64,000 bases of DNA from Chlorobaculum sp. MV4-Y (GCF_025244685.1 NZ_CP104202.1:1748471-1812470); one strand, 5' to 3'; shown: positions 5,439 through 53,766, numbered from the stretch's first letter. Program-made: numbers and translations. The notes: generated from the sequence alone by a model not told the origin.

Positions 5439-5538
5439 GGCGGGATTCATCCCGCCGGACATTTCGGCTTTTGCATTCATGTTGCCCCGGACTTTAGTCC
5501 GGGGAAGAGAGAGCCTCTGCCCATATGGGCTTCAGCCC
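5439..5538. repeat. cluster of short palindromes (REP-like), including CCCCGGACTTTAGTCCGGGG
   Basis: GGCGGGATTCATCCCGCC (5439-5456), CCCCGGACTTTAGTCCGGGG (5485-5504), GGGCTTCAGCCC (5527-5538). Second copy near 52381. Confidence 0.6.
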
Positions 5539-40351: not shown

Positions 40352-40504
40352 ACTTCAAATCATCACGGATTTGTATGTTTACACAATAAAGAGTAATATC
40401 AGGTTTCTGGACAACGGTTGGGCCAGAGGCTTTCAAGTGATTTGTGCTTTTGATTATTTGGCAGCTTTTCTCTTTCTATCAAAGCACTAAGACCTTTAAA
40501 AAGC

Positions 40505-42372: not shown

Positions 42373-42699
42373 ATGGAAAATCAGGACAAATACTACAAGG
42401 GACTCTTTTTCGGAGCCGTGCTCGGCGCCGCAGTCGGCACCATCATGGGTCTCCTCTTTGCTCCGCGCAAAGGCGAGGACACCCAGATGATCATCAGCGG
42501 CAAGCTCAAACGCGCCATTGACCGCGCAACGGAATTGTACGAAGGTTCGGAACGCGATGCGGCGTACAGCAACGAGGCAAAGCACCGCTCACAGGAGATT
42601 ATCGACAGCGCCCGTGACGAGGCCCGCAAGATTCTCGATGAGGCCAACACCATCATCCGCGACATTCGCGGCAACCAGGCCAAAGCGCAGGAGAACTGA
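42373..42699 (+). CDS. YtxH/DUF948-like small protein
   Basis: Start MENQDKYYKGLFFGAVLGAAVGTIMGLLFAPRKG (TM helix) followed by a coiled-coil tail. Confidence 0.5.
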   Translation: MENQDKYYKGLFFGAVLGAAVGTIMGLLFAPRKGEDTQMIISGKLKRAIDRATELYEGSERDAAYSNEAKHRSQEIIDSARDEARKILDEANTIIRDIRGNQAKAQEN

Positions 42700-42702
42700 G
42701 CC

Positions 42703-43473
42703 ATGCTGACTTTCACTGGAGCAGCAGGTGGCGAAACCGGCAATGTGTTGCTTTTGCACGCATTCCCGGTTTCGTCGCAGATGTGGGAGCCGCAGCTTGC
42801 GCCGCTGGCCGAGTCGGGCTACCGGGTAATCGCCCCCGTCGTGTACGGCTTCGAGTCAACGCCGTCGCGCCCCGGATGGAGCATGGATGATTACGCCCGC
42901 GACCTCGCCCGCCTCATCGAGGCGCTTGGCTGGAAGAGCGCGACCATCGTCGGCCTCTCGATGGGCGGCTATCAGGCAATGGCTTTCTACCGGCTCTACC
43001 CCGAGCTGACCGCTTCGCTGGTGCTCTGCGACACACGCGCCAACGCCGACACACCCGAAGCCTTCTCCGTTCGGCAGGAGTTCAGGAAAGCGGTGATGGA
43101 AAAAGGAGCGGAAGAGGCCGCGGCGAGAATGCTACCGAACTTTTTTGCGAAGGAGACTTACGAAACGAACCCGTCGCTCGTCGAAAAAACGCGAGCGAGC
43201 ATTGTCAGACAGAGCCCGGAGGACATCAGCGAAGCGATGCGAGCCATCGCCGAGCGCGAGGATTCAACGGAGCTACTGACCGAAATCACCTGCCCAACGC
43301 TCATCATCTGCGGCATGGAGGACACCGTCACCACGCCGGAGACCGCCGCCGGAATGCACGCCCTCATCCCCGGCTCAAAGCTCGAACTGATCCCCGAAGC
43401 AGGCCACCTCTCAAACCTCGACCAACCCGCGATGTTCAACGGAATATTGCTGGAACATTTGCGGAGTTTGTAA
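42703..43473 (+). CDS. alpha/beta hydrolase fold protein
   Basis: GLSMGG nucleophile elbow. 256 aa. Confidence 0.75.
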   Translation: MLTFTGAAGGETGNVLLLHAFPVSSQMWEPQLAPLAESGYRVIAPVVYGFESTPSRPGWSMDDYARDLARLIEALGWKSATIVGLSMGGYQAMAFYRLYPELTASLVLCDTRANADTPEAFSVRQEFRKAVMEKGAEEAAARMLPNFFAKETYETNPSLVEKTRASIVRQSPEDISEAMRAIAEREDSTELLTEITCPTLIICGMEDTVTTPETAAGMHALIPGSKLELIPEAGHLSNLDQPAMFNGILLEHLRSL

Positions 43474-43478
43474 ACAGT

Positions 43479-43520
43479 AAACCCCCAACCGGTGTGAACT
43501 GGTTGGGGGTTTGTTCTTTG
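43479..43520 (+). terminator. Rho-independent terminator
   Basis: AAACCCCCAACC-GGTGTGAACT-GGTTGGGGGTTT followed by a T-rich tract. Confidence 0.8.
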
Positions 43521-43875
43521 ATTTTTGTGACGCTCTTTTCGCCGCCTGTTCTCTGCTGCCGTAGCTTGGCGGTCAACATATGTGCAGACAACCTTTTCAC
43601 GCTAATAAAAACTTATTTTTTATAACGGCCGAGTGTATGTGCCGTAAGGGATAGCGGAGCAGTTTCCTGTCCACCGGCACGAAAGTTTGAGCGGGATACA
43701 ACGCTTGAATACCCACTGAAACCCTTATGGCATATACACTTTGTTGTGCGTTCGGTGTTCTTGTTTTGTCTCGATTGTCTGCCAGTTGTGCGCAGGAACA
43801 GACACACTCTTTGCCAAGTTTTGGCTTGTGTGTTGGCTTGTGCGACTTGGCAATGTGTGTGGCTGTTGAGTTGGC

Positions 43876-45003
43876 TCATTTTCTCGACATTATTATATCA
43901 ACTTCTCCTGGCTTCATTGTCTTGTCCCCGAAGAGTTTTGTTTGAGTTTTTGTGTCCTTTGTCAAAGGTTTTTCGACAATCTTAACTGAATGATTTGGGA
44001 AATGCCTTTTCAGTATTTCAATTGTAGAGTTGAAAGTAAATTCTCTCTTGTCTGTCCGAACATAAACAGTGCTTTCTCTTTTCATCATTTTGGCACAAAG
44101 TCCAAAAACTTTGTCCAGTAAGTCATAATATTCTTGTTTATTTACAAATCGACCTTTATGCTTATCTTTTAGTGATTGAGGATTTTCTGAGCCACCTAAA
44201 AGCCACAGTCGCAACCACTGGTCTGCGTGATAGTCAGTAATCGAGTAATAGGGTGGTGAAGTAAACAGCAAAGAAAACTTTATATCATTGTTTATTGCTC
44301 TTTCTGCAATGTTTATTAATTTATTTGAACTATCACCGAACACAATGGCACTCTCAGAAACTTTTGGTTTACCTTTCTCGTAACGCCATTCGATTTTTTT
44401 GAGAATGAAATCACAGGGGTTTATTTCAGGCGGTGTGGTCATATTGTTTTTCTTCCACCATTGCACAGAGTAATTCATCCCCATTGATTTAGTCATTCTC
44501 ATTTGATTGGAAAGTCCTTCGCCAATTTTTGCGTGTAGGTAAATCAGAAGTATTGACATCAAAGTCGCATCAACTTTATTGTTTCTCCAATCTAAATGAG
44601 TTCGGGCGGCTAACAGGAATTTAAGAACTTCGTCACAGTAACAAATGCGATAAAATTCGGGCATTTTTTGGATTGCTCGGTTGTAATAGTTTCTCTTACT
44701 GTAAATTTCAAGTAGACGGTCAATGACTTCTTCTTTTTCTGCTGGTTGCAGTTTTACAGTTCCATACAACCAACCCACAGGGTTAATTTCTAATCCTAAA
44801 CTATTTCTTCCTAAAACGCCACCAGCATATATACTACTGCATCTACCCGCAAAAGGGTCAATTATATAATCACCATTCTTTGAGTATTTCTCAACTACAT
44901 CAAATGCAAATTCCAAAGGAAACATTGCATAGTATGGTCCAAACCTTGCCCAACGTGCTTCGGCAGTTTCAAAACCTTTCAATATTTTTTCCTTTGCTAT
45001 CAT
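43876..45003 (-). CDS. DNA methyltransferase, alpha-class (N4-cytosine/N6-adenine; SPPY motif)
   Basis: N-terminal motif I IDPFAGRCSS, about 200-aa spacer, then motif IV FTSPPYYSITDY. 4-nt overlap with the upstream NurA-like gene. Confidence 0.75.
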   Translation of the reverse strand: MIAKEKILKGFETAEARWARFGPYYAMFPLEFAFDVVEKYSKNGDYIIDPFAGRCSSIYAGGVLGRNSLGLEINPVGWLYGTVKLQPAEKEEVIDRLLEIYSKRNYYNRAIQKMPEFYRICYCDEVLKFLLAARTHLDWRNNKVDATLMSILLIYLHAKIGEGLSNQMRMTKSMGMNYSVQWWKKNNMTTPPEINPCDFILKKIEWRYEKGKPKVSESAIVFGDSSNKLINIAERAINNDIKFSLLFTSPPYYSITDYHADQWLRLWLLGGSENPQSLKDKHKGRFVNKQEYYDLLDKVFGLCAKMMKRESTVYVRTDKREFTFNSTIEILKRHFPNHSVKIVEKPLTKDTKTQTKLFGDKTMKPGEVDIIMSRK

Positions 45004-46367
45004 TCTTTTGATTTCTCTCTTATTTCTCTTGCTATGTCTTCAAAAATTCGCTTGCCTAAGTTCAAAGGAATTGCTGTTTCTGCGTGTGCTGAAACTAACG
45101 GAGAAACAGAATTCGGGTATCTGCTTGAAACAAGTTGGTCTAGTAAATTCATAACATCTGCTAATCTTGTAAATTGGTCAGGATTTGCTGTATCAAGATT
45201 TCTTTGATACTCGTTGAAACAAGCTACGACAGGAACAATTTTTTGACCTGATGCCGCTTTGTAGAAAAGTTTTCTTCCAAAATAAGTGTCTTGACCGTAA
45301 GGTTTGATACTCTCAGAAAAAATGATATTTCGTTTTATGTAGCCGTCATTTAAGAGTAAGGCAGATTGTTTTGGAAATTTATCAGTTACGCCATCTTTGG
45401 TAGTGTCTATATCAATGAAGTGATTGAAGAATGTTCCTGATTTTTCAATTCCAATGATTAAAAGGTCTTGACCATTTATTTTCCGTTGAAGGTCATTCAG
45501 CCGAGTTAATTCGTGACTTATAACTTTTGTTAACCATGATGAAGTGCTAAATACAGCTAAAGGTCCATCCATTATAAAAGCAACTCTGCGAAGTGTTGCT
45601 AACCAACCTTTGCGTTCAAATGCTCTTAGAATGTGAACAAGCCAAAGTTTTTCAAGAGTGGACATTATTTGCCCAAACATTTCACCATTGCTCCCGCCTG
45701 GGTTCATAAGTTCGTGTAAACGCAAAGCATCAGTTGAGAAAAGCGGCTCGCCTGAATGAGGACAAGTATATTCCCCAAAGTCATAAGTCATTTCTTCTTC
45801 AACTCCTTCAATTGGGCTTCTTGGTAAATTTCTTTCTTGAAAATGTTCACGTTTTATTCTAAAAAGATGCTCGTAGGTGTCAAGCAAACTTTCCCCATCT
45901 GAAAAAATGGTGTTGCTGCGTAACTCTTCAAATAAAGCTCTCCGTAAGGAAGACTTAGCATTTTTTTCTGTATCGAGAATTACATTACAACCGGGAAAAA
46001 CGCTTTCAATGGTTGATGCTTTTTCGGTTTCACGAAATTTCTTTGGTTCAACAAATTCCTTTTTTTCTAACTCTCCAATTAATTTCAAGTCAATTAAAAC
46101 GGAAGCAATGGTAATGTAACCAAATTCAGCACCAGGAAATCCGTTTTCTGCTTTTGCCGCTAAATTGCTTCCATCAATTGCAAGAACTAAATCAGGTTGT
46201 AAGGTACTTTCGGTCAAATCAGATTTTTTGACTATTGAACCTTCAAAGTCTTCTGTTTCTTCTTCCTGTTGCCTTATTTTAAGTCGGTTTTGAAGTGATT
46301 TGACTTTTTCACTATCAAGTAACCGTCTTAAAGGCTCGTAACTGGCAAATTCCCCTTCAAAACTCAT
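45000..46367 (-). CDS. NurA-like nuclease
   Basis: N-terminal LVLAIDGSNLAAKA (NurA IDGS catalytic motif). 455 aa. Located 11 nt downstream of the HerA-like gene. Confidence 0.45.
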   Translation of the reverse strand: MSFEGEFASYEPLRRLLDSEKVKSLQNRLKIRQQEEETEDFEGSIVKKSDLTESTLQPDLVLAIDGSNLAAKAENGFPGAEFGYITIASVLIDLKLIGELEKKEFVEPKKFRETEKASTIESVFPGCNVILDTEKNAKSSLRRALFEELRSNTIFSDGESLLDTYEHLFRIKREHFQERNLPRSPIEGVEEEMTYDFGEYTCPHSGEPLFSTDALRLHELMNPGGSNGEMFGQIMSTLEKLWLVHILRAFERKGWLATLRRVAFIMDGPLAVFSTSSWLTKVISHELTRLNDLQRKINGQDLLIIGIEKSGTFFNHFIDIDTTKDGVTDKFPKQSALLLNDGYIKRNIIFSESIKPYGQDTYFGRKLFYKAASGQKIVPVVACFNEYQRNLDTANPDQFTRLADVMNLLDQLVSSRYPNSVSPLVSAHAETAIPLNLGKRIFEDIAREIREKSKE

Positions 46368-46378
46368 ATGATAGTGTG

Positions 46379-48484
46379 TTAAACTTCAAACCTGTCCACT
46401 TGAACAGGAATGACAAATAGGTTACTTAAAGTTTTTACTCTTAAAAACCCTTTATCTTGGGCTCGTCTTATGGATGGTTCAAAGTCTGCAAAGTCGTAAT
46501 ACTTGCAAAGTTCTTTTGTCTCATCGGTATTGTTCAAATGGCTAATAAACCAATTGGCAGTGTTTTTAAGAATGTTCTTTTGAATGCTGCTTACTTCTTG
46601 CGTGGCGTATACCATTCCGATGCGATATTTAGAACCTTCTTTTGCAGTCCTTACCCAAATGTCTGATAAATCTAAATCATTACCTGCAGGCAAAATATTG
46701 TGGGCTTCTTCAACATAAACTAAAATTTCAGGAATGTTTGTTTCGCCTTGAACAAATTTTCTTTGATTTTCTTTGAAAATCTTTGTCATTATTCTGGTCG
46801 CAGAAGATTTGTTGAGTTCGGGTTCTCCACTTGATTGGTCAATTATTACCAATTTACCTTGAACAAGGTGGTTGTAAATATCTTCTGCATAATCACTTGT
46901 TGTGTCGGCACTATGTTGTTCTGCCGCTTTGCCGATTTTTCTAGTTCCGTTGGGATATTGAAAAATGCCAATGATTTTTTTCAAATCTTCATCAGCCCAT
47001 CTGTCGCCTGAGCCATTAGGACGACTTACATAAGCATTTTCAAATGTCGTGTAATTACTGCTGCTGTCTCGAATGAATTTATCTAATGCTTCAAAAGCGT
47101 TAGCAAGTTGACCCCAAGCAGGATTTGGGTTTGAGAATACTTGTGCTGCTGAAACATATTCAGGGGTTGGCGGATTATTATTTCTTCCCGTTTGAAGGGC
47201 GGTAATCAAGTCTTGATTAAAAAGACCCCTTGTGCTTGCCCTTAAACTTGGTGGAACTTGAAAACCTGCTCTGGCTAATACTGAACGATAGGCTAATAAT
47301 CGTCTGTTATAACGTGTAGTTGCACTTCGGTCATTTGGGTCAGGTTCATCAAAGCTTACTTGGCAGAATTGTTTGATGTAATTAGTGCTATCTTCTGATA
47401 GGATGCTATCAATTATACTTTTTCCAATCTGCGTATTACTTGTTTCAAAGAAGTTTAGAAGCATTAAGGTTCTTTCAGGGTCATTTGGATGTCTTGTAAT
47501 TCCATAGGTAATAACTTCGTTTGCCTTTACACCATTTGGCAAAAGTTGCCAAACATTTTTAAGAGCGGAATTATTGTCCTGAACATTTTCATTTGCATAC
47601 TCACCATTTGGGTCAAAAATAATTTGCCCTATTCGTAGCGGTCTGTCATTAGGATTTTCATTTTTTCTTAATTCAAATACTGATTTGGCGATAATTTTAG
47701 TGGTGTTTGATTTACCCGTTCTTGTCATACCGAACAATGCAGATTTTTGAGATAGCAAGTCCGCAGGATATATATAAACTGGAACATCATCTACTTGCTG
47801 ATATTTACGATTTGTTGAAGCATAGCGAACAAATCCAAGTTTCACTCTCTCTGTGTTTCCGTATTTCTCTGTGTGAGCCTGAATACTTGTAGGGTCTGCG
47901 TAATTTACGATTTGTTCAAGTGCTTTTCCGTTTGGCTTATAAACTTTCAAGCCCCTGTTTGGGTAGTAATTAGAAATATCGCTACCAAATTTCAGATTAA
48001 GAGGGGCGTCACCATTATGACCGTTTTCTTCAAGAAAGAATGTTCCAATAATTCGGCATTGAACACCAGCAAATCCAAGAATGTTTTTTGTTCGCAAGTC
48101 CATTGAACCTGCATCATCCCAATGTTTTTCAGTTTCTCCGCTTATTCTTTGAGCCGTTTCAACTCTAATTCTTTCTGCTTCTTTGTCTTGTGGTAAAGTT
48201 GCTGCATCCATTACTCGTAAAAGAACAAATGAAGCATCTTCCTTTTTAAAGTCAATATCTGTTTTACTTGGGTCAACTCGTGTCGCAATTAGAAAACTTA
48301 AACTTGGTATTCCACCAACTTTCTCTCTGTAAAAGTCGTGAATGATTACTCTTGCTGTCTCATAGTTGATAGAGTAAATGTCACCAACATACTGGTCTGC
48401 TTGAATAAGCTTTTGAAACCATTGTTGGCTTTCAACTTGTTTGTCGTTTTCTCGTCTTGAGTTAAGTCCCTGTTCTATACTCAT
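46379..48484 (-). CDS. HerA-like (FtsK/HerA superfamily, DUF87) ATPase
   Basis: Walker [14 protein letters not shown]. Walker [14 protein letters not shown] (DEAH-like, HerA-typical). 701 aa with a long N-terminal region. Confidence 0.6.
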
Positions 48485-48780
48485 ATTGTCAAATTATTAG
48501 TTGTCAAATTTATTAATTTCTGTCGGTGCGTTGGCAAAAAAATGGCTCTTTTGGTTTTTTGAGTTTTGGCTCGTGTGTCGGCAAAAACCAAATGTGCCAT
48601 TTGCGTGTCGGCTGTCTTTTTTACACTGACGCACAACGTTTTGCGGCTTTGCGTAGTGGCGGATTTCGGAGCACAAAACTGTCAACATACCACAAAAGCT
48701 GATGCGAGGTAGAATGTTCAATTAACCACTGAACCCGCCATTACGCAAAACCGCTGTTGGGTGCTGGCCTTCTATCTTTG

Positions 48781-49920
48781 TCAGAACATTTTGATTTGTT
48801 CACCGTGTTCAAATTCAAATTCTTTATGTCCGTCTAATACTTCTAATGCTTCTCTAACTTTTAAAGCAATTTTCTTTGCAAATATCACGGGAACTGCGTT
48901 TCCAATTTGGAGTTGTAATTCTCTTTTGTTGTTTCCGTAAAAAATCCAATCATCTGGAAAAGTCTGCAATCTCGCATATTCCCTTGCTGTAAAAGGTCTG
49001 ATTTTACTTGCTTTTATTCTCCAAAGTTTTGCAGTCGACTCAGGGTTTCTTACATACATTGCATTGTCTCTGTCCTTGTCAATTCTTTCTGCTACAACAT
49101 TGCCAATAGCCCAACCCCAAACGGTTGCTGTGTCAATTGCTGGAAAAGGAGAGTCAAAATCTCTGATTGGGTTTCCTTCTGATGCCGTTCTACTAAGTCT
49201 AACAGGAATTACAATTTCAGATTCGTCATATGGTAGCCCTGTTTCTGTATGAGCATAGCTTTTAAAGCCCCATTCAGGATTATGATTTGGTAATTCAATG
49301 TTTAAATTTTGTCCTAGTTCGTATATGAATTTCCTTATTCCTGTTTCCTTTTCTGCTCTTGGAAATTTGAAGTGTTTTAATGTGTCATCCTTGTAAGCGA
49401 TAAAAACAAAACGTCTTCTTGTTTGAGGAACTCCGTGTTCTGAAACTCTAAAAAAATCAAATTCTGTAGTATACCCGATTGAAGCAAGTTCATCTGAAAT
49501 CTGTTGTGCAAAAGGTTTGCCTGTTTCAGGGTGGGTCATTGTCCTAAGATTAAGAACATTTTCCATTACAATCACTCTGGGTTGCATTATACTCGCAATC
49601 CTGACAACTTCACGGTATAAAGTATTTCTTTCGTCATTTTCATCCCTGTTGCCACCAAGTGAAAATCCTTGACAAGGAAACCCTGCTAATAAAACATCTA
49701 GGCCACTCTTAAATGAGGGAGTATATTCTCGAACGTCTCCATGTATTATATCCCAATTTGGTCTGTTAGATTGTAAAGTATTGACTGCATAATCTAAAAT
49801 TTCATTTGATTCTGTATGTTCAAACCCTGCTAACTCAAAACCTAAGTCAAGTCCACCCGCACCTGTAAAAAGGCCGAGAAACGTATAGTTTGTTTTGGTT
49901 TCCTTCTTTAACTGATTCAT
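48781..49920 (-). CDS. DNA (cytosine-5)-methyltransferase
   Basis: Motif I FLGLFTGAGGLDLGF, motif IV GFPCQGFS, motif VI ENV. Confidence 0.9.
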   Translation of the reverse strand: MNQLKKETKTNYTFLGLFTGAGGLDLGFELAGFEHTESNEILDYAVNTLQSNRPNWDIIHGDVREYTPSFKSGLDVLLAGFPCQGFSLGGNRDENDERNTLYREVVRIASIMQPRVIVMENVLNLRTMTHPETGKPFAQQISDELASIGYTTEFDFFRVSEHGVPQTRRRFVFIAYKDDTLKHFKFPRAEKETGIRKFIYELGQNLNIELPNHNPEWGFKSYAHTETGLPYDESEIVIPVRLSRTASEGNPIRDFDSPFPAIDTATVWGWAIGNVVAERIDKDRDNAMYVRNPESTAKLWRIKASKIRPFTAREYARLQTFPDDWIFYGNNKRELQLQIGNAVPVIFAKKIALKVREALEVLDGHKEFEFEHGEQIKMF

Positions 49921-49923
49921 TGC

Positions 49924-50772
49924 TTATTTGGTTAAAGGTGGAATAATAGGAATGGAGGCTGTTCTCTCTTTTGGAGAACGCAGTTTGCAAGCATCAAAAA
50001 TATCTGTGAGTGTGGCTAAACTCCCTTTTGACTTACCTGCTGATTTTGTTTCATCTTTCAGATAATAGTAAAATGAATTGCCGTATTTATCGGTTCTGAT
50101 GATTTGTTCGCTAACAAAATCAGTAGATTTTATTTTTTCTAAATCAGACTTTTTTGCAACGAGAATTTGTCGAAGGTGAAATTCAGATATTTTGGAATTT
50201 AATGGATTTGGGTAGGTGTACATTTTTCTGTGTCGTACCGAACCTTCTCCATAAGGGCCGTGATTATATTCTGTGTAGTTTGAATATTTTGACTCTTTAT
50301 GCAATTCAAAATCATAGTTCAAAAAGTCTCCGTCTATCAGTATCAGAGTAACTATGTTTTTGCTGTCATTGTCAAGAAGTGCGAAAAGGTAAAAGCAAGG
50401 AATTATTATTGTTTCTGCACCAACTTTGATTAGTGTCGAGCCACAAGGCAAACTACTATTGTAGTCAATTGTCAAGCCCCTTGAATCGCTTCCGTTAGGT
50501 TTTTGGATTAATTTTTTAATTTCTAAACCAACAACTGTCCCTGATTTCGTATCTCTAACAACTAAGTCAGGGGTTGTCAATGAGCCTGAATGGTAAATTT
50601 CAAAAGATTTTGGTAATGCCTTTTTTATTTCTGCTTCAATCCAATTGTCAAATGGGTCGTCTTGAACTGTCCCAACTATTGACTTTGCTCTCATATCAAC
50701 AGGGATTCCGTTGCTCCCAATTTTGGAAATCAACTCTCGGTATATTCGTAAAATTATTTCTAGTTCTGTCAT
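49924..50772 (-). CDS. putative Type II restriction endonuclease (PD-(D/E)xK)
   Basis: TPDLVVRDTKSGTVVGLEIKK matches a PD...(D/E)xK pattern. The stop lies 3 nt before the C5-MTase start. Confidence 0.5.
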   Translation of the reverse strand: MTELEIILRIYRELISKIGSNGIPVDMRAKSIVGTVQDDPFDNWIEAEIKKALPKSFEIYHSGSLTTPDLVVRDTKSGTVVGLEIKKLIQKPNGSDSRGLTIDYNSSLPCGSTLIKVGAETIIIPCFYLFALLDNDSKNIVTLILIDGDFLNYDFELHKESKYSNYTEYNHGPYGEGSVRHRKMYTYPNPLNSKISEFHLRQILVAKKSDLEKIKSTDFVSEQIIRTDKYGNSFYYYLKDETKSAGKSKGSLATLTDIFDACKLRSPKERTASIPIIPPLTK

Positions 50773-50969
50773 ATTTCTTTAATGGTCAAAGTTACAAAAT
50801 TCAGGTCTGCTATCTCCATTTTAGCCCTGTCATTTTACTTGGTGGTCGTCTTTTAGGCTTGCACCCAACTTGCTTATCTGCGCTACTCTATAGCGCCTTA
50901 CATGCCATATTAGACAAATAAGCGCGACAAAGTAGCGTGTTATTGTCCGGCGTGGTCTTGTTACAGTTA

Positions 50970-52118
50970 TTACAAATCATCGAATGGACTTTTAATCTGC
51001 TGTAAACTTTTTTTGCTGACATGGGTATAGATTTCGGTGGTCTTGCTGCTTTTGTGCCCCAGAAGTTCCTGAATATACCTGAGGTCGGTTCCCGATTCCA
51101 GCAGATGAGTGGCATAACTGTGCCGTAACCAGTGCAGCGTTACCGGTTTTGTAATGGAAGCTTTTTTCAATGCATGTTTCAATACCTGTTCAAGACTTCT
51201 TGCGCTGTATTGGGTATCGGGAAATTGCCCTTCGAAAAGCCATTGCTTTGGTTTGCAGGCCTTATAGTATTCACGCAACATTCCAATCACTTTGTTTGAA
51301 ATTGGCGCTACCCTGTCTTTGTGGCCCTTGGCATCTTTTATGATGAGAAGGCCACGTTTGGAATCCACATGTTCGGGTCTAAGGTTCAGCAGCTCACTGC
51401 GCCTGAGTCCACAGGCGTAGATCAGGCTGAGCATTGTTCGGTGTTTCAGATTTGTGGGCGCTTCCAGAATCTCTTTTACCTCTTCTTTGCTCAGCACATT
51501 CGGCAGTTTGTGCTGTGAACGAGGACGTTGCAGTTTTTCTGGCCAGAGCGTTGCGTCATGTATAACTCTGAAAAAAAGCTTTGCTGCATTAACTACCTGG
51601 TTTTGATATGCATAACTTAATCCATTGGGCAAGATGTATTCGTTGACAAAACGCACCATATCCTCGCTGGTTATCTCGTTGGCTTGTTTCGGACTGATGA
51701 ATCTCAGGAATACTTCGAGAACCTGCAGGTAGGTTTTGACGGTAGAATCGCTATAGCGCTTGTGCAGCAGCCACTGCCTGAACGTATGAAGCTCTTGAAG
51801 CAATTGCGGCGAAAGCGTGGCCTGTATTATGGTCTTTTGCTGAGCAGATGTGGTTCTGTTGCCTCGGGTTGCCAGGTGCTTTTCTCTGAAAGCAGAATAA
51901 TCTACCCAAGCTTTGCCCTTGAACTGCTTGAGCATCAGATCGATCACCTCGTCCGATTCAGGAATATACCAACGGTTACAACTGCTACTCCAGCGTACGC
52001 CCTTTAACTGCTTCACCTCAGCAGTCAGGGCTTCATCGTATGGAAACTCAAGCACCACCCGCTTTTCACCCCTGTGCTCAAAGGGCGTAATCCGTATGAC
52101 GGTGCTTGCATGAGGCAT
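50970..52118 (-). CDS. tyrosine-type site-specific integrase/recombinase
   Basis: C-terminal HWLRHSYATHLLESGTDLRYIQELLGHKSSKTTEIYTHV (R..H..R..Y catalytic box) and an N-terminal SAM-like domain. Confidence 0.85.
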   Translation of the reverse strand: MPHASTVIRITPFEHRGEKRVVLEFPYDEALTAEVKQLKGVRWSSSCNRWYIPESDEVIDLMLKQFKGKAWVDYSAFREKHLATRGNRTTSAQQKTIIQATLSPQLLQELHTFRQWLLHKRYSDSTVKTYLQVLEVFLRFISPKQANEITSEDMVRFVNEYILPNGLSYAYQNQVVNAAKLFFRVIHDATLWPEKLQRPRSQHKLPNVLSKEEVKEILEAPTNLKHRTMLSLIYACGLRRSELLNLRPEHVDSKRGLLIIKDAKGHKDRVAPISNKVIGMLREYYKACKPKQWLFEGQFPDTQYSARSLEQVLKHALKKASITKPVTLHWLRHSYATHLLESGTDLRYIQELLGHKSSKTTEIYTHVSKKSLQQIKSPFDDL

Positions 52119-52380
52119 TTGCTGTGGGGGAAAGGTGATGCTACCTTATTATTCAGCCAACACATTTTATTAAAATAAATAAAATGTACTGACACGCAAA
52201 CAAATGCGGGAAACTTGCCACAGGATTTCCCTCTTCATCCCACCTCCAGAAACGCGAAAAAACCCCGACCGCTTTGCACCAGCCGAGGTTTCACGTTGTT
52301 GCTCCGGCAGTGATGCTCATAAAAGTCACCGAAACAAGAAATTAGGCTAAAGCCCTGAATTATTTTGCCTTATCCATCAA

Positions 52381-52445
52381 CCCCGGACTAAAGTCCGGGG
52401 CAACTGAAGAAAATGTAAGCATTGAATGTCCGTCGGGCTGAAGCC
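52381..52445. repeat. REP-like palindrome CCCCGGACTAAAGTCCGGGG plus GGGCTGAAGCC
   Basis: The same palindromes as at 5485-5538. Located between the integrase and aroA. Confidence 0.6.
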
Positions 52446-52461
52446 TTCCTGAATACGAAAC

Positions 52462-53766
52462 CTACTGCCTCAGCGACTCGATCAGGCTGAAGAAGTTCGG
52501 GAACGACACGCCTGCCACTTCGCGATCCGAGAGGCGTAGCGACGCGCCTGCGGCTTCGGCGGCAATGGCAAAGCTCATGGCGATGCGGTGGTCATCGAAG
52601 CACTCGATCTCCACCTCTTCGCGGTTGACCGTCGGGCGCCCCTTGACCACGAAGCCGTCAGGATACTGCTCGCACTCGAAGCCGAGGCGCTCCAGATTCA
52701 CGACCAGCGCGTCGATGCGGTCGCTCTCCTTGGTGCGCAGTTCGGCAGCGTTGTGCAGCTCGAACTCGCCCGAGGCGAATGCCGAAAGCACGGCGAGCAT
52801 CGGCAGTTCGTCGATCACGCCCGCCACGACGCCGTGATCGCTGATGCGCAGCGGCTTCAAGCCGGAGCAGCTCCGGACGGCGATGTCACCCACCGGCTCG
52901 CCGCCCTCCGAGCGCACATTCTCGATGCCGAGACCCGCACCCGCCTCCTGAAGCACATCAATGTAGGCCACGCGCGTCGGGTTGAGGCAGACGTCGCGCA
53001 GCACGACTTCCGAGCGCTTGCCGAGCAGGCCGAGCGCGATCATAAAGCAGGCCGCCGACGGATCGGCAGGCACGCTGAATGGCTTGGCGGCAATCGGCTT
53101 GCGCCCGTCGATAATGATCTCGCGGACGCCGTCGGGGCGGTCGATGGTTTCGAGGCCAAGCATCAACTCGGTGTGGTCGCGCGAACGGATCGGCTCGATG
53201 ATCTTCGACTGGCCGTCGGCGTGCAGCGCCGCGAAGGCCACGAGCGACTTCACCTGCGCGGAAGGCACCGGGAGATGGTACTCGATCGTCTTCAGCGCTT
53301 TGGAGCCGTGGATGACGACCGGCGCGGTTCCGGCGTCGGAGAGCGAAATCTTCGCACCCATCTGGCGCAGCGGGTCGGCGACGCGCTTCATCGGACGCTT
53401 CATCAGCGAAGCGTCGCCCACCAGCTCACTCCGGAAAGGCTGCGCGGCAAGAATACCCGCCATCATGCGCATGGTGCTGCCGGAGTTGTTGCACATCAGC
53501 GGCACGGAAGGCTCGCGGAAGCTCCACAGGCCATTTGACTTGATCACGACATGGCGGACGATCCGCCAGTCACCGCCGGAAAGCTCCTCCTGTCGAATGG
53601 AAATACCGGCATCCCTCAGCACCGACAGGGTTGACTGGTTGTCGTATCCACCCGAAAAGTTGGAAATCTCGGTCGTGCCTTCGGCGAGCGCGCCGATAAG
53701 CGCGGCGCGATGCGAAATCGATTTGTCCGGCGGAAGGGTCGTCACCTCGCCCTGAAAAATGCTCAT
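52462..53766 (-). CDS. aroA: 3-phosphoshikimate 1-carboxyvinyltransferase (EPSP synthase)
   Basis: [17 protein letters not shown]-terminal motif. 434 aa. Confidence 0.9.

Follow-up and report, generated by a model that had tools for sequence, protein, structure and literature searches.

The integron is the textbook example of a gene-capture device, and what defines its integrase is a single additional domain. Sedentary chromosomal integrons store defence cassettes (10.1101/2024.07.02.601686), and rAID arrays of gut Bacteroidales, the subject of Ross et al. 2019 (10.1101/471110) and of a 2025 preprint (10.1101/2025.05.03.651265), have been described as merely 'reminiscent' of integrons, with a recombinase that is called predicted. 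In the 2025 preprint the words attC, hairpin, excision and cassette are absent, and our literature search found no paper describing attC-like hairpin logic for rAID. Here we examine an AT-rich island in the green sulfur bacterium Chlorobaculum sp. MV4-Y, within a window of 64,000 nucleotides (GCF_025244685.1, NZ_CP104202.1:1748471-1812470) whose first letter is position 1. We consider it very likely that this island, which lies between aroA and an alpha/beta-hydrolase gene, is a chromosomal integron-like, rAID-type cassette platform of one Chlorobaculum lineage.

Recombinase, attI-like site and cassettes

In the arrangement that we propose, an Xer-like recombinase would come first and a primary attI-like site, ending ...CAAGTT, would follow immediately downstream. 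Circular cassettes with one attC-like hairpin each would insert at this site and would also be excised, with the crossover at or next to a GTT triplet, and as a result each cassette would start with TT plus nine further bases (N9) and end in a hairpin with a complementary 5' flank.

The recombinase gene, int (50970-52118, minus strand), encodes a tyrosine recombinase of 382 aa that matches PF00589 (Phage_integrase, 1.8e-40) and PF13495 (Phage_int_SAM_4, 1.4e-11). It scores 217 bits against NF040815 ('XerA / integron integrase', cut-off 220), 196 bits against TIGR02249 (integron integrase, cut-off 265; two matching stretches, E = 7.7e-58) and 130 bits against PRK15417 (NF011946, cut-off 435). 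Aligned with VchIntIA (2a3v, E 2.6e-32), residues 110-289 and 309-380 of int correspond to IntI 6-185 and 247-318, so that IntI residues 186-246 have no counterpart and about 40 extra IntI residues are absent. In integron integrases, such IntI-specific extra residues bind extrahelical bases of folded attC. At its other end int carries an N-terminal extension of about 100 aa with no Pfam match, and it is with this extension included that int aligns end to end, at 35% identity, with a B. ovatus rAID-type recombinase (L157; 367 aa, E = 1e-65). To judge by these alignments, int is an Xer/IntI-like tyrosine recombinase without the domain that defines integron integrases. We read the gene as functional: it is intact and under purifying selection, with a ratio of nonsynonymous to synonymous divergence (dN/dS) of 0.094 against the copy in the relative L041. 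Because dS is only 0.27 for int and 0.95 for aroA in the same genome pair, the platform appears to have moved between Chlorobaculum lineages more recently than the lineages split.

Directly downstream, an alignment of seven Chlorobaculum copies defines the attI-like site (50867-50969, minus strand), in which two inverted repeats (IR) built from one box, IR-a (ACGCTACtttGTCGCGC, 50922-50938) and IR-b (GCGCTAtagagTAGCGC, 50880-50896), are followed by AGATAAGCAAGTT. Conservation with the relatives ends at the GTT (50867-50869), and variable DNA starts there.

Two cassettes follow, both on the minus strand. Cassette 1 (48637-50868) consists of a TTGGGTGCAAGCC leader, orf282, a gene for a C5 cytosine methyltransferase (MTase) and the attC-like element X1, and cassette 2 (43626-48636) of a TTGTGCGTCAG leader, a hairpin element H1, genes for a HerA-like ATPase, a NurA-like nuclease and an N6/N4 MTase, a second hairpin element H2 and the attC-like element X2. 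Read on the coding strand, an X element begins with a flank ending in AAC, continues through 1-2 bases, a 20-bp arm, about 70 nt kept in both copies and the complementary arm, and closes with a bulge of 4-5 nt (AAAAC or GGCC) and GTT. X1 (48637-48767, minus strand) has a 20-bp stem GCGGTTTTGCGTAATGGCGG / CCGCCACTACGCAAAGCCGC around the conserved centre of about 70 nt, the bulge AAAAC and the G of its GTT at 48637; X2 (43626-43754, minus strand) has the stem AAGTGTATATGCCATAAGGG / CCCTTACGGCACATACACTC, the bulge GGCC and the G of its GTT at 43626. The two stems differ in sequence and keep their pairing (covariation). Over 120 nt (48780-48661 versus 43768-43649) the elements are homologous, with z = 6.7 against shuffles, a relationship that looked like chance under harsh scoring (score 32) and emerged with gentler scoring and shuffles.

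Each cassette start is mirrored in the flank of the cassette's own element. For X1, 10 of 12 positions in the R''-type flank CCAGCACCCAAC agree with the reverse-complemented start of cassette 1, GTTGGGTGCAAG, and when extended (GGCCAGCACCCAAC) the flank matches the reverse complement of the 14 bases from the attI GTT (GTTGGGTGCAAGCC) at 12 of them. The X2 flank CGAACGCACAAC (ACGCACAAC) is an exact complement, over nine contiguous bases, of the cassette-2 start GTTGTGCGT at the GTT that closes X1. When folded as they would occur in circular form, X1 and X2 reach z = -4.2 and z = -4.3, with none of 200 shuffles as good, compared with z = -2.2 and -1.6 in array context. Circle-form folding together with start/flank complementarity is the defining geometry of integron cassettes, and the sites may likewise be used as folded single strands. 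The predicted circle junction of cassette 1 would read ...GCCGCAAAACG joined to TTGGGTGCAAGCC (also …CAAAACG joined to TTGGGTGCAAG) and that of cassette 2 ...ACACTCGGCCG joined to TTGTGCGTCAGTG (also …CTCGGCCG joined to TTGTGCGTCAG).

H1 (48540-48602) and H2 (43797-43867), which bracket the three-gene operon of cassette 2, have different stems of 20-23 bp and a shared 21-nt loop, GCC(A/G)ACACAC(A/G)AGCCAAAACT, and CA-rich GCCAACAC-like motifs recur around both. They travel with the operon into unrelated genomes, in that the homology with one further locus (L147) starts exactly at H1 and two Chitinophagaceae arrays (L148 and L149) contain both; they may act as insulating terminators or mark where an earlier mobile unit ended. 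Rfam held no family for X or H elements, either at the gathering threshold on the window and four arrays or in E-value mode on the island. Two minus-strand open reading frames (ORFs) that overlap X and H elements (43613-43879, 88 codons; 48497-48721, 74 codons) are most likely spurious because they are composed of repeat sequences.

Site conservation and cargo turnover in other genomes

The same layout recurs in homologues of the recombinase. Scanning of metagenomes yielded 80 loci with an int homologue at 36-75% identity, mostly on low-GC contigs, and most of these roughly 80 homologues have an attI-type layout just after the int stop codon, with two inverted repeats of a locus-specific box (e.g., GCGCTA/TAGCGC, GTATGAT/ATCATAC, GTCTGAC/GTCAGAC), a CCCAAAnnnGGG-type spacer between them, and then ATATAAACAAGTT followed by RNNNGCAA(T/G). 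A non-AT 6-mer is present at least three times, counting both orientations, in 23 of 55 post-int regions, where shuffles predict 3.6. As the two repeats share their sequence and not just their pairing, the boxes are read as putative protein-binding sites, which may serve the extra N-terminal domain.

Cassette starts follow the rule as well. Among 33 metagenomic loci with an int homologue, 14 have a downstream copy of the reverse-complemented first-cassette start with no more than one mismatch; shuffled DNA gave 0 of 33, and exchanging starts between loci gave 2 of 165. The next cassette begins with the same GTT-RNNNGCAAT consensus. A hidden Markov model (HMM) built only from X1, X2 and the copy in the relative L005 found 39 further elements (E < 0.01). 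Only a single one of them is off the int strand, and those whose position was checked lie downstream of int; one locus, L101, has nine X elements in a row, 0.7-1.5 kb apart. Several successive cassettes of the Chitinophagaceae array L148, which was read by hand as the stem-based scanner was noisy (15 reverse-strand versus 20 forward matches), obey the start/flank rule at 10-11 of 12 positions, with the two mismatches always at the same positions (GCAGC versus GCAAC), a pattern that points to an internal mismatch kept by the site.

At the locus itself, relatives show what is inherited and what is exchanged. The aroA product, for which an exact look-up found no identical protein on record, is 92-94% identical to that of Chlorobaculum thiosulfatiphilum DSM 249 and of several Chlorobaculum metagenome-assembled genomes (MAGs). 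The empty site is seen in about 30 Chlorobiaceae genomes, where aroA converges on the neighbouring alpha/beta-hydrolase gene across a spacer of 7-940 bp that holds terminators and host repeats. Only the closest relatives, L001 and L003-L006, plus L041, hold 3-6 kb there, and none of that DNA matches the window cargo. The comparison supports an origin of the island as horizontally acquired DNA between a conserved convergent gene pair.

These six relatives keep two segments of the platform. About 230 bp are homologous to window positions 52062-52292, that is, the first 19 int codons and the sequence upstream, and about 100-160 bp to 50851-51017, the int 3' end and the sequence downstream. The two int-end segments lie only about 75-110 bp apart in L001, L003, L005 and L006, with an IS3 element between them in L004, and int in L001 and L003-L006 is internally deleted. 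L041 has a gutted int remnant and cargo and then a second, complete platform, whose int has 95% protein identity to the window int. Downstream of int, conservation ends right after ...GATAAGCAAGTT in every copy, and it resumes in all copies ahead of the hydrolase terminator, with a common segment ...CGTT followed by ATAAAAAATAAGTTTTTATTAGCGTGA...; this conserved distal array end (TTATAAAAAATAAGTTTTTATTAGCGTGAAAAGGTTGTCTGCACA; 43578-43625, minus strand) is common to the relatives whatever their cargo and also closes the first of the L041 tandem platforms. Between the kept ends the interior is low in GC, different in each relative and defence-related in most, with PDC-S46 in L001, PDC-M30A/B in L003, PDC-S54 in L004, a 456-aa gene without assignment in L005, Gabija GajA/GajB in L006 (E = 3e-287 and 4e-236) and a C5-MTase with an HNH nuclease in L041. 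It is the cargo, and not the integrase-bearing platform, that differs between sister genomes.

Two further arrangements were seen at this locus. The tandem platforms of L041 (11303-15949) run from aroA through the gutted int, attI, a restriction-modification (R-M) cassette, a small cassette and the conserved distal end into the second platform, which has the complete int and reaches the contig end. In L003-L006 an extra toxin-antitoxin insert of 0.7-1 kb between aroA and the int remnant (L003 11303-12500, L004 5329-6730, L005 7188-8600, L006 11303-12600) encodes a ParE/RelE-like toxin (MKARFIATASLELDEAVKYYDYQ...) and a DUF2442-like small protein, and is flanked by two copies of a segment of about 45 bp that matches window 52249-52292.

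The window cargo, assigned by domain scans, is likewise suggestive of defence. In cassette 1 the C5-MTase (48781-49920, minus strand) is clear (PF00145, 207 bits; TIGR00675, 183 bits). The linked orf282 (49924-50772, minus strand), a 282-aa protein that is always followed by a C5-MTase, has a PD...EIK motif (TPDLVV...GLEIKK) and no match in Pfam, NCBIfam or PADLOC; its AlphaFold (AF2) model is poor (predicted local distance difference test, pLDDT, 55), and Foldseek against the Protein Data Bank (PDB) gave nothing usable. With no family match and a poor fold model, the endonuclease call is therefore tentative, and cassette 1 is most simply read as a type II R-M pair with orf282 as the putative restriction endonuclease. 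The pair is conserved in Bacteroidota at 73-91% aa identity, and in the two contexts examined it lies outside arrays and without an X element; it therefore seems that cassettes recruit gene sets.

Cassette 2 encodes a HerA/FtsK-type ATPase (DUF87; 46379-48484), a NurA-domain nuclease (45000-46367) and an N6/N4 DNA methyltransferase (43876-45003), all on the minus strand, in genes that overlap or abut, the NurA stop overlapping the MTase start. The NurA-like protein matches PF09376 (8.4e-32), with homologues at 80-96% identity in Chitinophagaceae, Flectobacillus, Pontibacter, Flavobacterium, Bacteroidales and Acinetobacter that always lie inside a HerA-NurA-MTase trio, a module conserved at 75-96% in Bacteroidota and Acinetobacter. 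The HerA-like protein scores 29.9-40.9 bits against HerA models with cut-offs of 600-970. PADLOC-DB v2 has no model matching the NurA partner, and a literature search returned no paper combining NurA, HerA, methyltransferase and anti-phage defence. The trio is probably an ATP-driven restriction-modification-like system, in which the methylase would mark self DNA and the HerA motor would feed unmarked DNA to the NurA nuclease.

This operon can be followed between genomes, and with it comes direct evidence that cassettes move as exact units. In L148 and L149, both Chitinophagaceae MAGs, it sits inside long arrays headed by an int homologue, and the site at its own 3' end has a flank, GCAGCCTGTAAC, that mirrors its start GTTACAGGCAAC. 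The two genomes share exactly one block, the HerA-NurA-MTase cassette (5071 bp, 99.1% identity), between unrelated neighbours, and this block reaches from 2 nt ahead of one GTT to 2 nt past the following one. The L148 array (1-21365 of JAUCCB010000001.1) has at least 25 co-oriented genes after the int homologue, among them WapI immunity, MerT/HMA, a NucS-like nuclease, a Gp49/HTH toxin-antitoxin, an AAA_15 ATPase and the HerA cassette, so that a single array combines immunity and defence genes with cargo of a housekeeping type. In Acinetobacter towneri and a relative (L151/L152, 7362-12492) the operon, at about 75% nucleotide identity, is shared as genes only; it adjoins a TnsE C-terminal fragment just downstream of glmS and appears to be cargo of a Tn7-like element, so that, taken with the cassette arrays, the operon uses at least two mobility routes.

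Island borders and rival explanations

An earlier note on this DNA, made from the sequence alone, had described an AT-rich foreign island between the hydrolase gene and aroA, with six genes all on the minus strand, a tyrosine integrase at the aroA-proximal edge and no tRNA or tmRNA target, and all of this holds. Sliding-window guanine-plus-cytosine (GC) content falls from about 0.60 to about 0.37 (0.59-0.63 at 42500-43499; 0.35-0.40 at 43750-50999), stands at 0.46-0.48 over 51000-52499, the integrase region, and reaches 0.66 in aroA; by feature it is 0.371 and 0.375 in the cassettes, 0.469 in int, 0.59 in the hydrolase-side flank and 0.64 in aroA. ORF and domain scans return the six genes, with the integrase gene intact where it had been placed, and a tRNA/tmRNA scan of the whole 64-kb window finds none. 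Orthologous island genes with native GC in all relatives, which the note had named as evidence to the contrary, did not turn up, no relative's locus DNA matching the window cargo, and the empty site it had proposed to look for is the arrangement of the roughly 30 other Chlorobiaceae genomes. The extent it gave (43521-52460) stands on the hydrolase side, where native sequence, with the hydrolase terminator hairpin at 43472-43519, extends to about 43520, and shortens on the aroA side: sequence contiguous with aroA in relatives extends to about 52241, and the foreign block therefore spans about 43520-52292 and does not reach 52460. A terminator-like hairpin with a T-run (52249-52292, minus strand), located from the sequence and from blastn pieces against relatives, forms the aroA-proximal edge of the conserved platform.

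The palindrome at 52381-52400, resembling a repetitive extragenic palindrome (REP) and suspected in the note to be part of the junction, is a dispersed host repeat outside the element, with an identical copy at 5485-5504 and related copies elsewhere in the relatives L011-L013, and is therefore not junction-specific. Its family, built round CCCCGGACTAAAGTCCGGGG and GGGCTGAAGCC-type palindromes, was seen at 5485-5504 and 52374-52455 of the window and at 2791-3096 of L013, with three tandem copies in one relative. Elsewhere in the window, a Chlorobi-RRM RNA (Rfam RF01697, 57.5 bits) lies at 40404-40479, in a local GC dip upstream of a 490-aa gene.

The note's own picture was of a single island whose integration site was atypical or which had itself decayed, and in its fullest form it takes the whole 9 kb as one unit, either a classical integrative island or an integrative mobilisable element, inserted at an unusual non-tRNA attB whose repeats have since decayed. 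It would account for the empty site in relatives, the integrase at one edge, the foreign composition and a platform that looks horizontally exchanged (int dS 0.27 versus aroA dS 0.95; the tandem platforms of L041), but we found neither attL/attR at a tRNA or tmRNA gene nor a direct repeat of any kind at the borders. The search that had been proposed for a repeat of at least 12 bp between 43480-43900 and 52119-52460 ended at a longest common direct word of 7 nt, which is chance level (shuffles, 7-9), and local alignments of the borders gave no direct repeat above chance. The int-proximal and distal ends, moreover, are kept in six relatives around a completely different interior, an internal copy of the terminal element divides the cargo into two units that obey cassette logic, and one of these cassettes is found, precisely delimited, in arrays that are otherwise unrelated. 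We regard insertion as one unit as unlikely, and what had been taken for one island is better described as a cassette array with a head integrase, an attI-like site and two cassettes.

Nor do we see here a canonical integron, with IntI and true attC sites, that annotation pipelines failed to flag. Integrons have been reported in Chlorobi (PMC9024848), int does match TIGR02249 (E = 7.7e-58) and VchIntIA (2.6e-32), and the sites have AAC...GTT ends and hairpins, but int stays below the curated cut-offs (196 versus 265; 130 versus 435 for PRK15417), lacks the IntI-specific insertion of about 40 residues and adds an N-terminal domain of about 100 aa that is common to the rAID-type recombinase, and the attI-like site lies downstream of a co-oriented int. 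This makes it an extremely remote prospect; pdif/Xer modules and a prophage remnant were considered and rejected along with it. A defence-island hotspot renewed only by homologous recombination, with the X and H elements as terminators or regulatory RNAs and the integrase a bystander, draws on the fact that relatives with a dead int still vary in cargo, on conserved ends that could act as recombination arms, and on X and H elements that occupy 3' untranslated positions and fold as hairpins. Yet it leaves three things unexplained: the specific complementarity, across many loci, of each cassette start to its own 3' element; the position of breakpoints, no more than 2 nt from a GTT; and the strict association of X elements with int homologues in the same orientation. 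Rfam has no such RNA. We hold this view to be very improbable.

Several observations nevertheless weigh against the integron-like, rAID-type cassette platform that we prefer. L001 and L003-L006 have only an internally deleted int, yet cargo differs in each, which requires a recombinase in trans, homologous recombination via the conserved ends, or independent histories. Start/flank complementarity is weak in L006 and L041 (up to 3 mismatches in 12) and was not found in L001 and L003-L005, and the chain-following script selects wrong GTTs in some loci, including long arrays. The conserved centre of about 70 nt in the X element is not explained by the attC analogy. The anatomy, the conservation of the sites throughout the family, breakpoints at cassette precision between genomes and the turnover of cargo at the locus are observed; that this int carries out the recombination is something we infer. 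In IntI the extrahelical bases of folded attC are read by an insertion that int does not have, so that a single-stranded attC-type substrate is only an analogy. Smyshlyaev et al. describe the IntI insertion as 'not fully conserved' in their integron-like recombinase subgroup (PMC8138268).

Comparison with known systems

The HerA-NurA-MTase operon resembles archaeal HerA-NurA and bacterial HerA defence systems (Sir2-HerA, DUF4297-HerA) in placing a HerA/FtsK-type ATPase beside a NurA-domain nuclease. From the HerA-NurA resection complex it differs in that Mre11/Rad50 neighbours are absent, the third gene is a DNA methyltransferase, the HerA equivalog score is 41 bits versus a cut-off of 970, and the operon travels as a mobile cassette across phyla; with a NurA domain present, HerA below cut-offs and an MTase as neighbour, the trio does not qualify as an end-resection system. 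As a widely travelling operon with a presumptive role in defence, it is a candidate defence system.

Likeness to rAID is carried by a B. ovatus record (L157) in which a tblastn search of plasmid records found an int homologue followed by SUKH, Imm26, PoNe-immunity and Tdi1 genes; by these immunity genes it is a rAID-type array. Its intergenic repeats, of about 65 nt, read ...TAAC-A-stem-loop-stem-AAACC-ATT-A..., and 9 of 11 consecutive cassettes have at least 8 contiguous bases after ATT that are complementary to their own 3' repeat, where non-adjacent pairings average 3.3. Given this shared logic and the recombinase homology, the window element therefore appears to work like rAID-1 and is homologous to it. 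Measured against the definition of rAID-1 by Ross et al. 2019, the locus has five genes on the int strand downstream of the recombinase (at least two co-directional genes are asked for), a downstream GC of 0.371 and 0.375 that is within the limit of 41% and below that of int (0.469), and repetitive intergenic motifs (X1/X2, z = 6.7, with HMM matches in homologue arrays). On identity, for which rAID-1 uses 44%, the window int reaches 35% with the B. ovatus proxy, BF9343_RS08045 itself not being part of the comparison, and probably falls below the threshold. Its cargo, an R-M pair and HerA/NurA/MTase in Chlorobaculum, is not the orphan toxin-immunity cargo in Bacteroidales by which rAID-1 is recognised. 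The differences are then of host (Bacteroidales versus a green sulfur bacterium, Chlorobiota), of cargo (orphan toxin-immunity genes versus DNA and phage defence in the window and its sisters, namely R-M, HerA/NurA/MTase, Gabija and PDC candidates), of cassette size (single genes of 100-300 codons versus multi-gene cassettes of 2.2-5 kb) and of site (about 65 nt with ATT versus about 130 nt with GTT).

With integrons the locus shares a resident tyrosine recombinase by a presumptive primary site, a one-directional, promoter-poor cassette array, cassette ends that form an imperfect palindrome (...AAC / GTT...) with the presumed crossover at GTT, cassettes whose first bases are part of their own site in the circular form, and defence genes as cargo. 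Cassettes bounded by attC-type sites, with AAC/GTT and the start inside the own site, are present as judged from structural and comparative evidence. The IntI-specific domain and matches above the curated models are absent: the window int has no IntI insertion and has an added N-terminal domain. A conserved site does follow int, but int points the same way as the cassettes and has the attI-like site on its downstream side, not upstream of a divergent integrase as in integrons, and the element itself differs in its asymmetric bulge of 4-5 nt (AAAAC / AAACC) and its conserved central stretch of about 70 nt.

Chryseobacterium plasmids, in the same tblastn search, have int homologues of 52% identity that head arrays. 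One of these plasmids (L156, Chryseobacterium sp. SNU WT5, NZ_CP041688.1; 13240-14560 and 15700-17560) carries two insertions in attC-like sites, one an element of the IS110 family and the other a group II intron (Rfam RF02001/RF00029) that runs antisense to the cassettes, both at the same site position, after ...CC(T/A)GGTAAC and before the stem. In integrons, IS1111 elements and group IIC introns that target attC offer a parallel.

Xanthomonas integrons downstream of ilvD occupy one inherited site, with the integrase inactivated in most and arrays that vary between strains. Our locus resembles this chromosomal integron setting (10.1101/2025.06.18.660453) in having a platform at one chromosomal site, decayed integrases and differing arrays, and differs from it in recombinase family, in site type and in arrays of only one or two cassettes.

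Set beside these systems, the anatomy described here gives the rAID family an explicit and testable recombination logic, with a GTT-ended primary site, a start-pairing hairpin flank and breakpoints within 2 nt of GTT, and widens the rAID-related family to include another phylum, plasmids and anti-phage cargo. We lean towards the broader view that this is a second, IntI-independent class of integron, in which an Xer-like recombinase with an N-terminal domain would act on circular cassettes with long attC-like hairpins and a crossover at GTT or ATT. Such a class would span Bacteroidota and Chlorobiota, chromosomes and plasmids, with Bacteroidales rAID as one of its branches, and would move whole anti-phage systems (HerA-NurA-methylase, Gabija, R-M pairs) across phyla.

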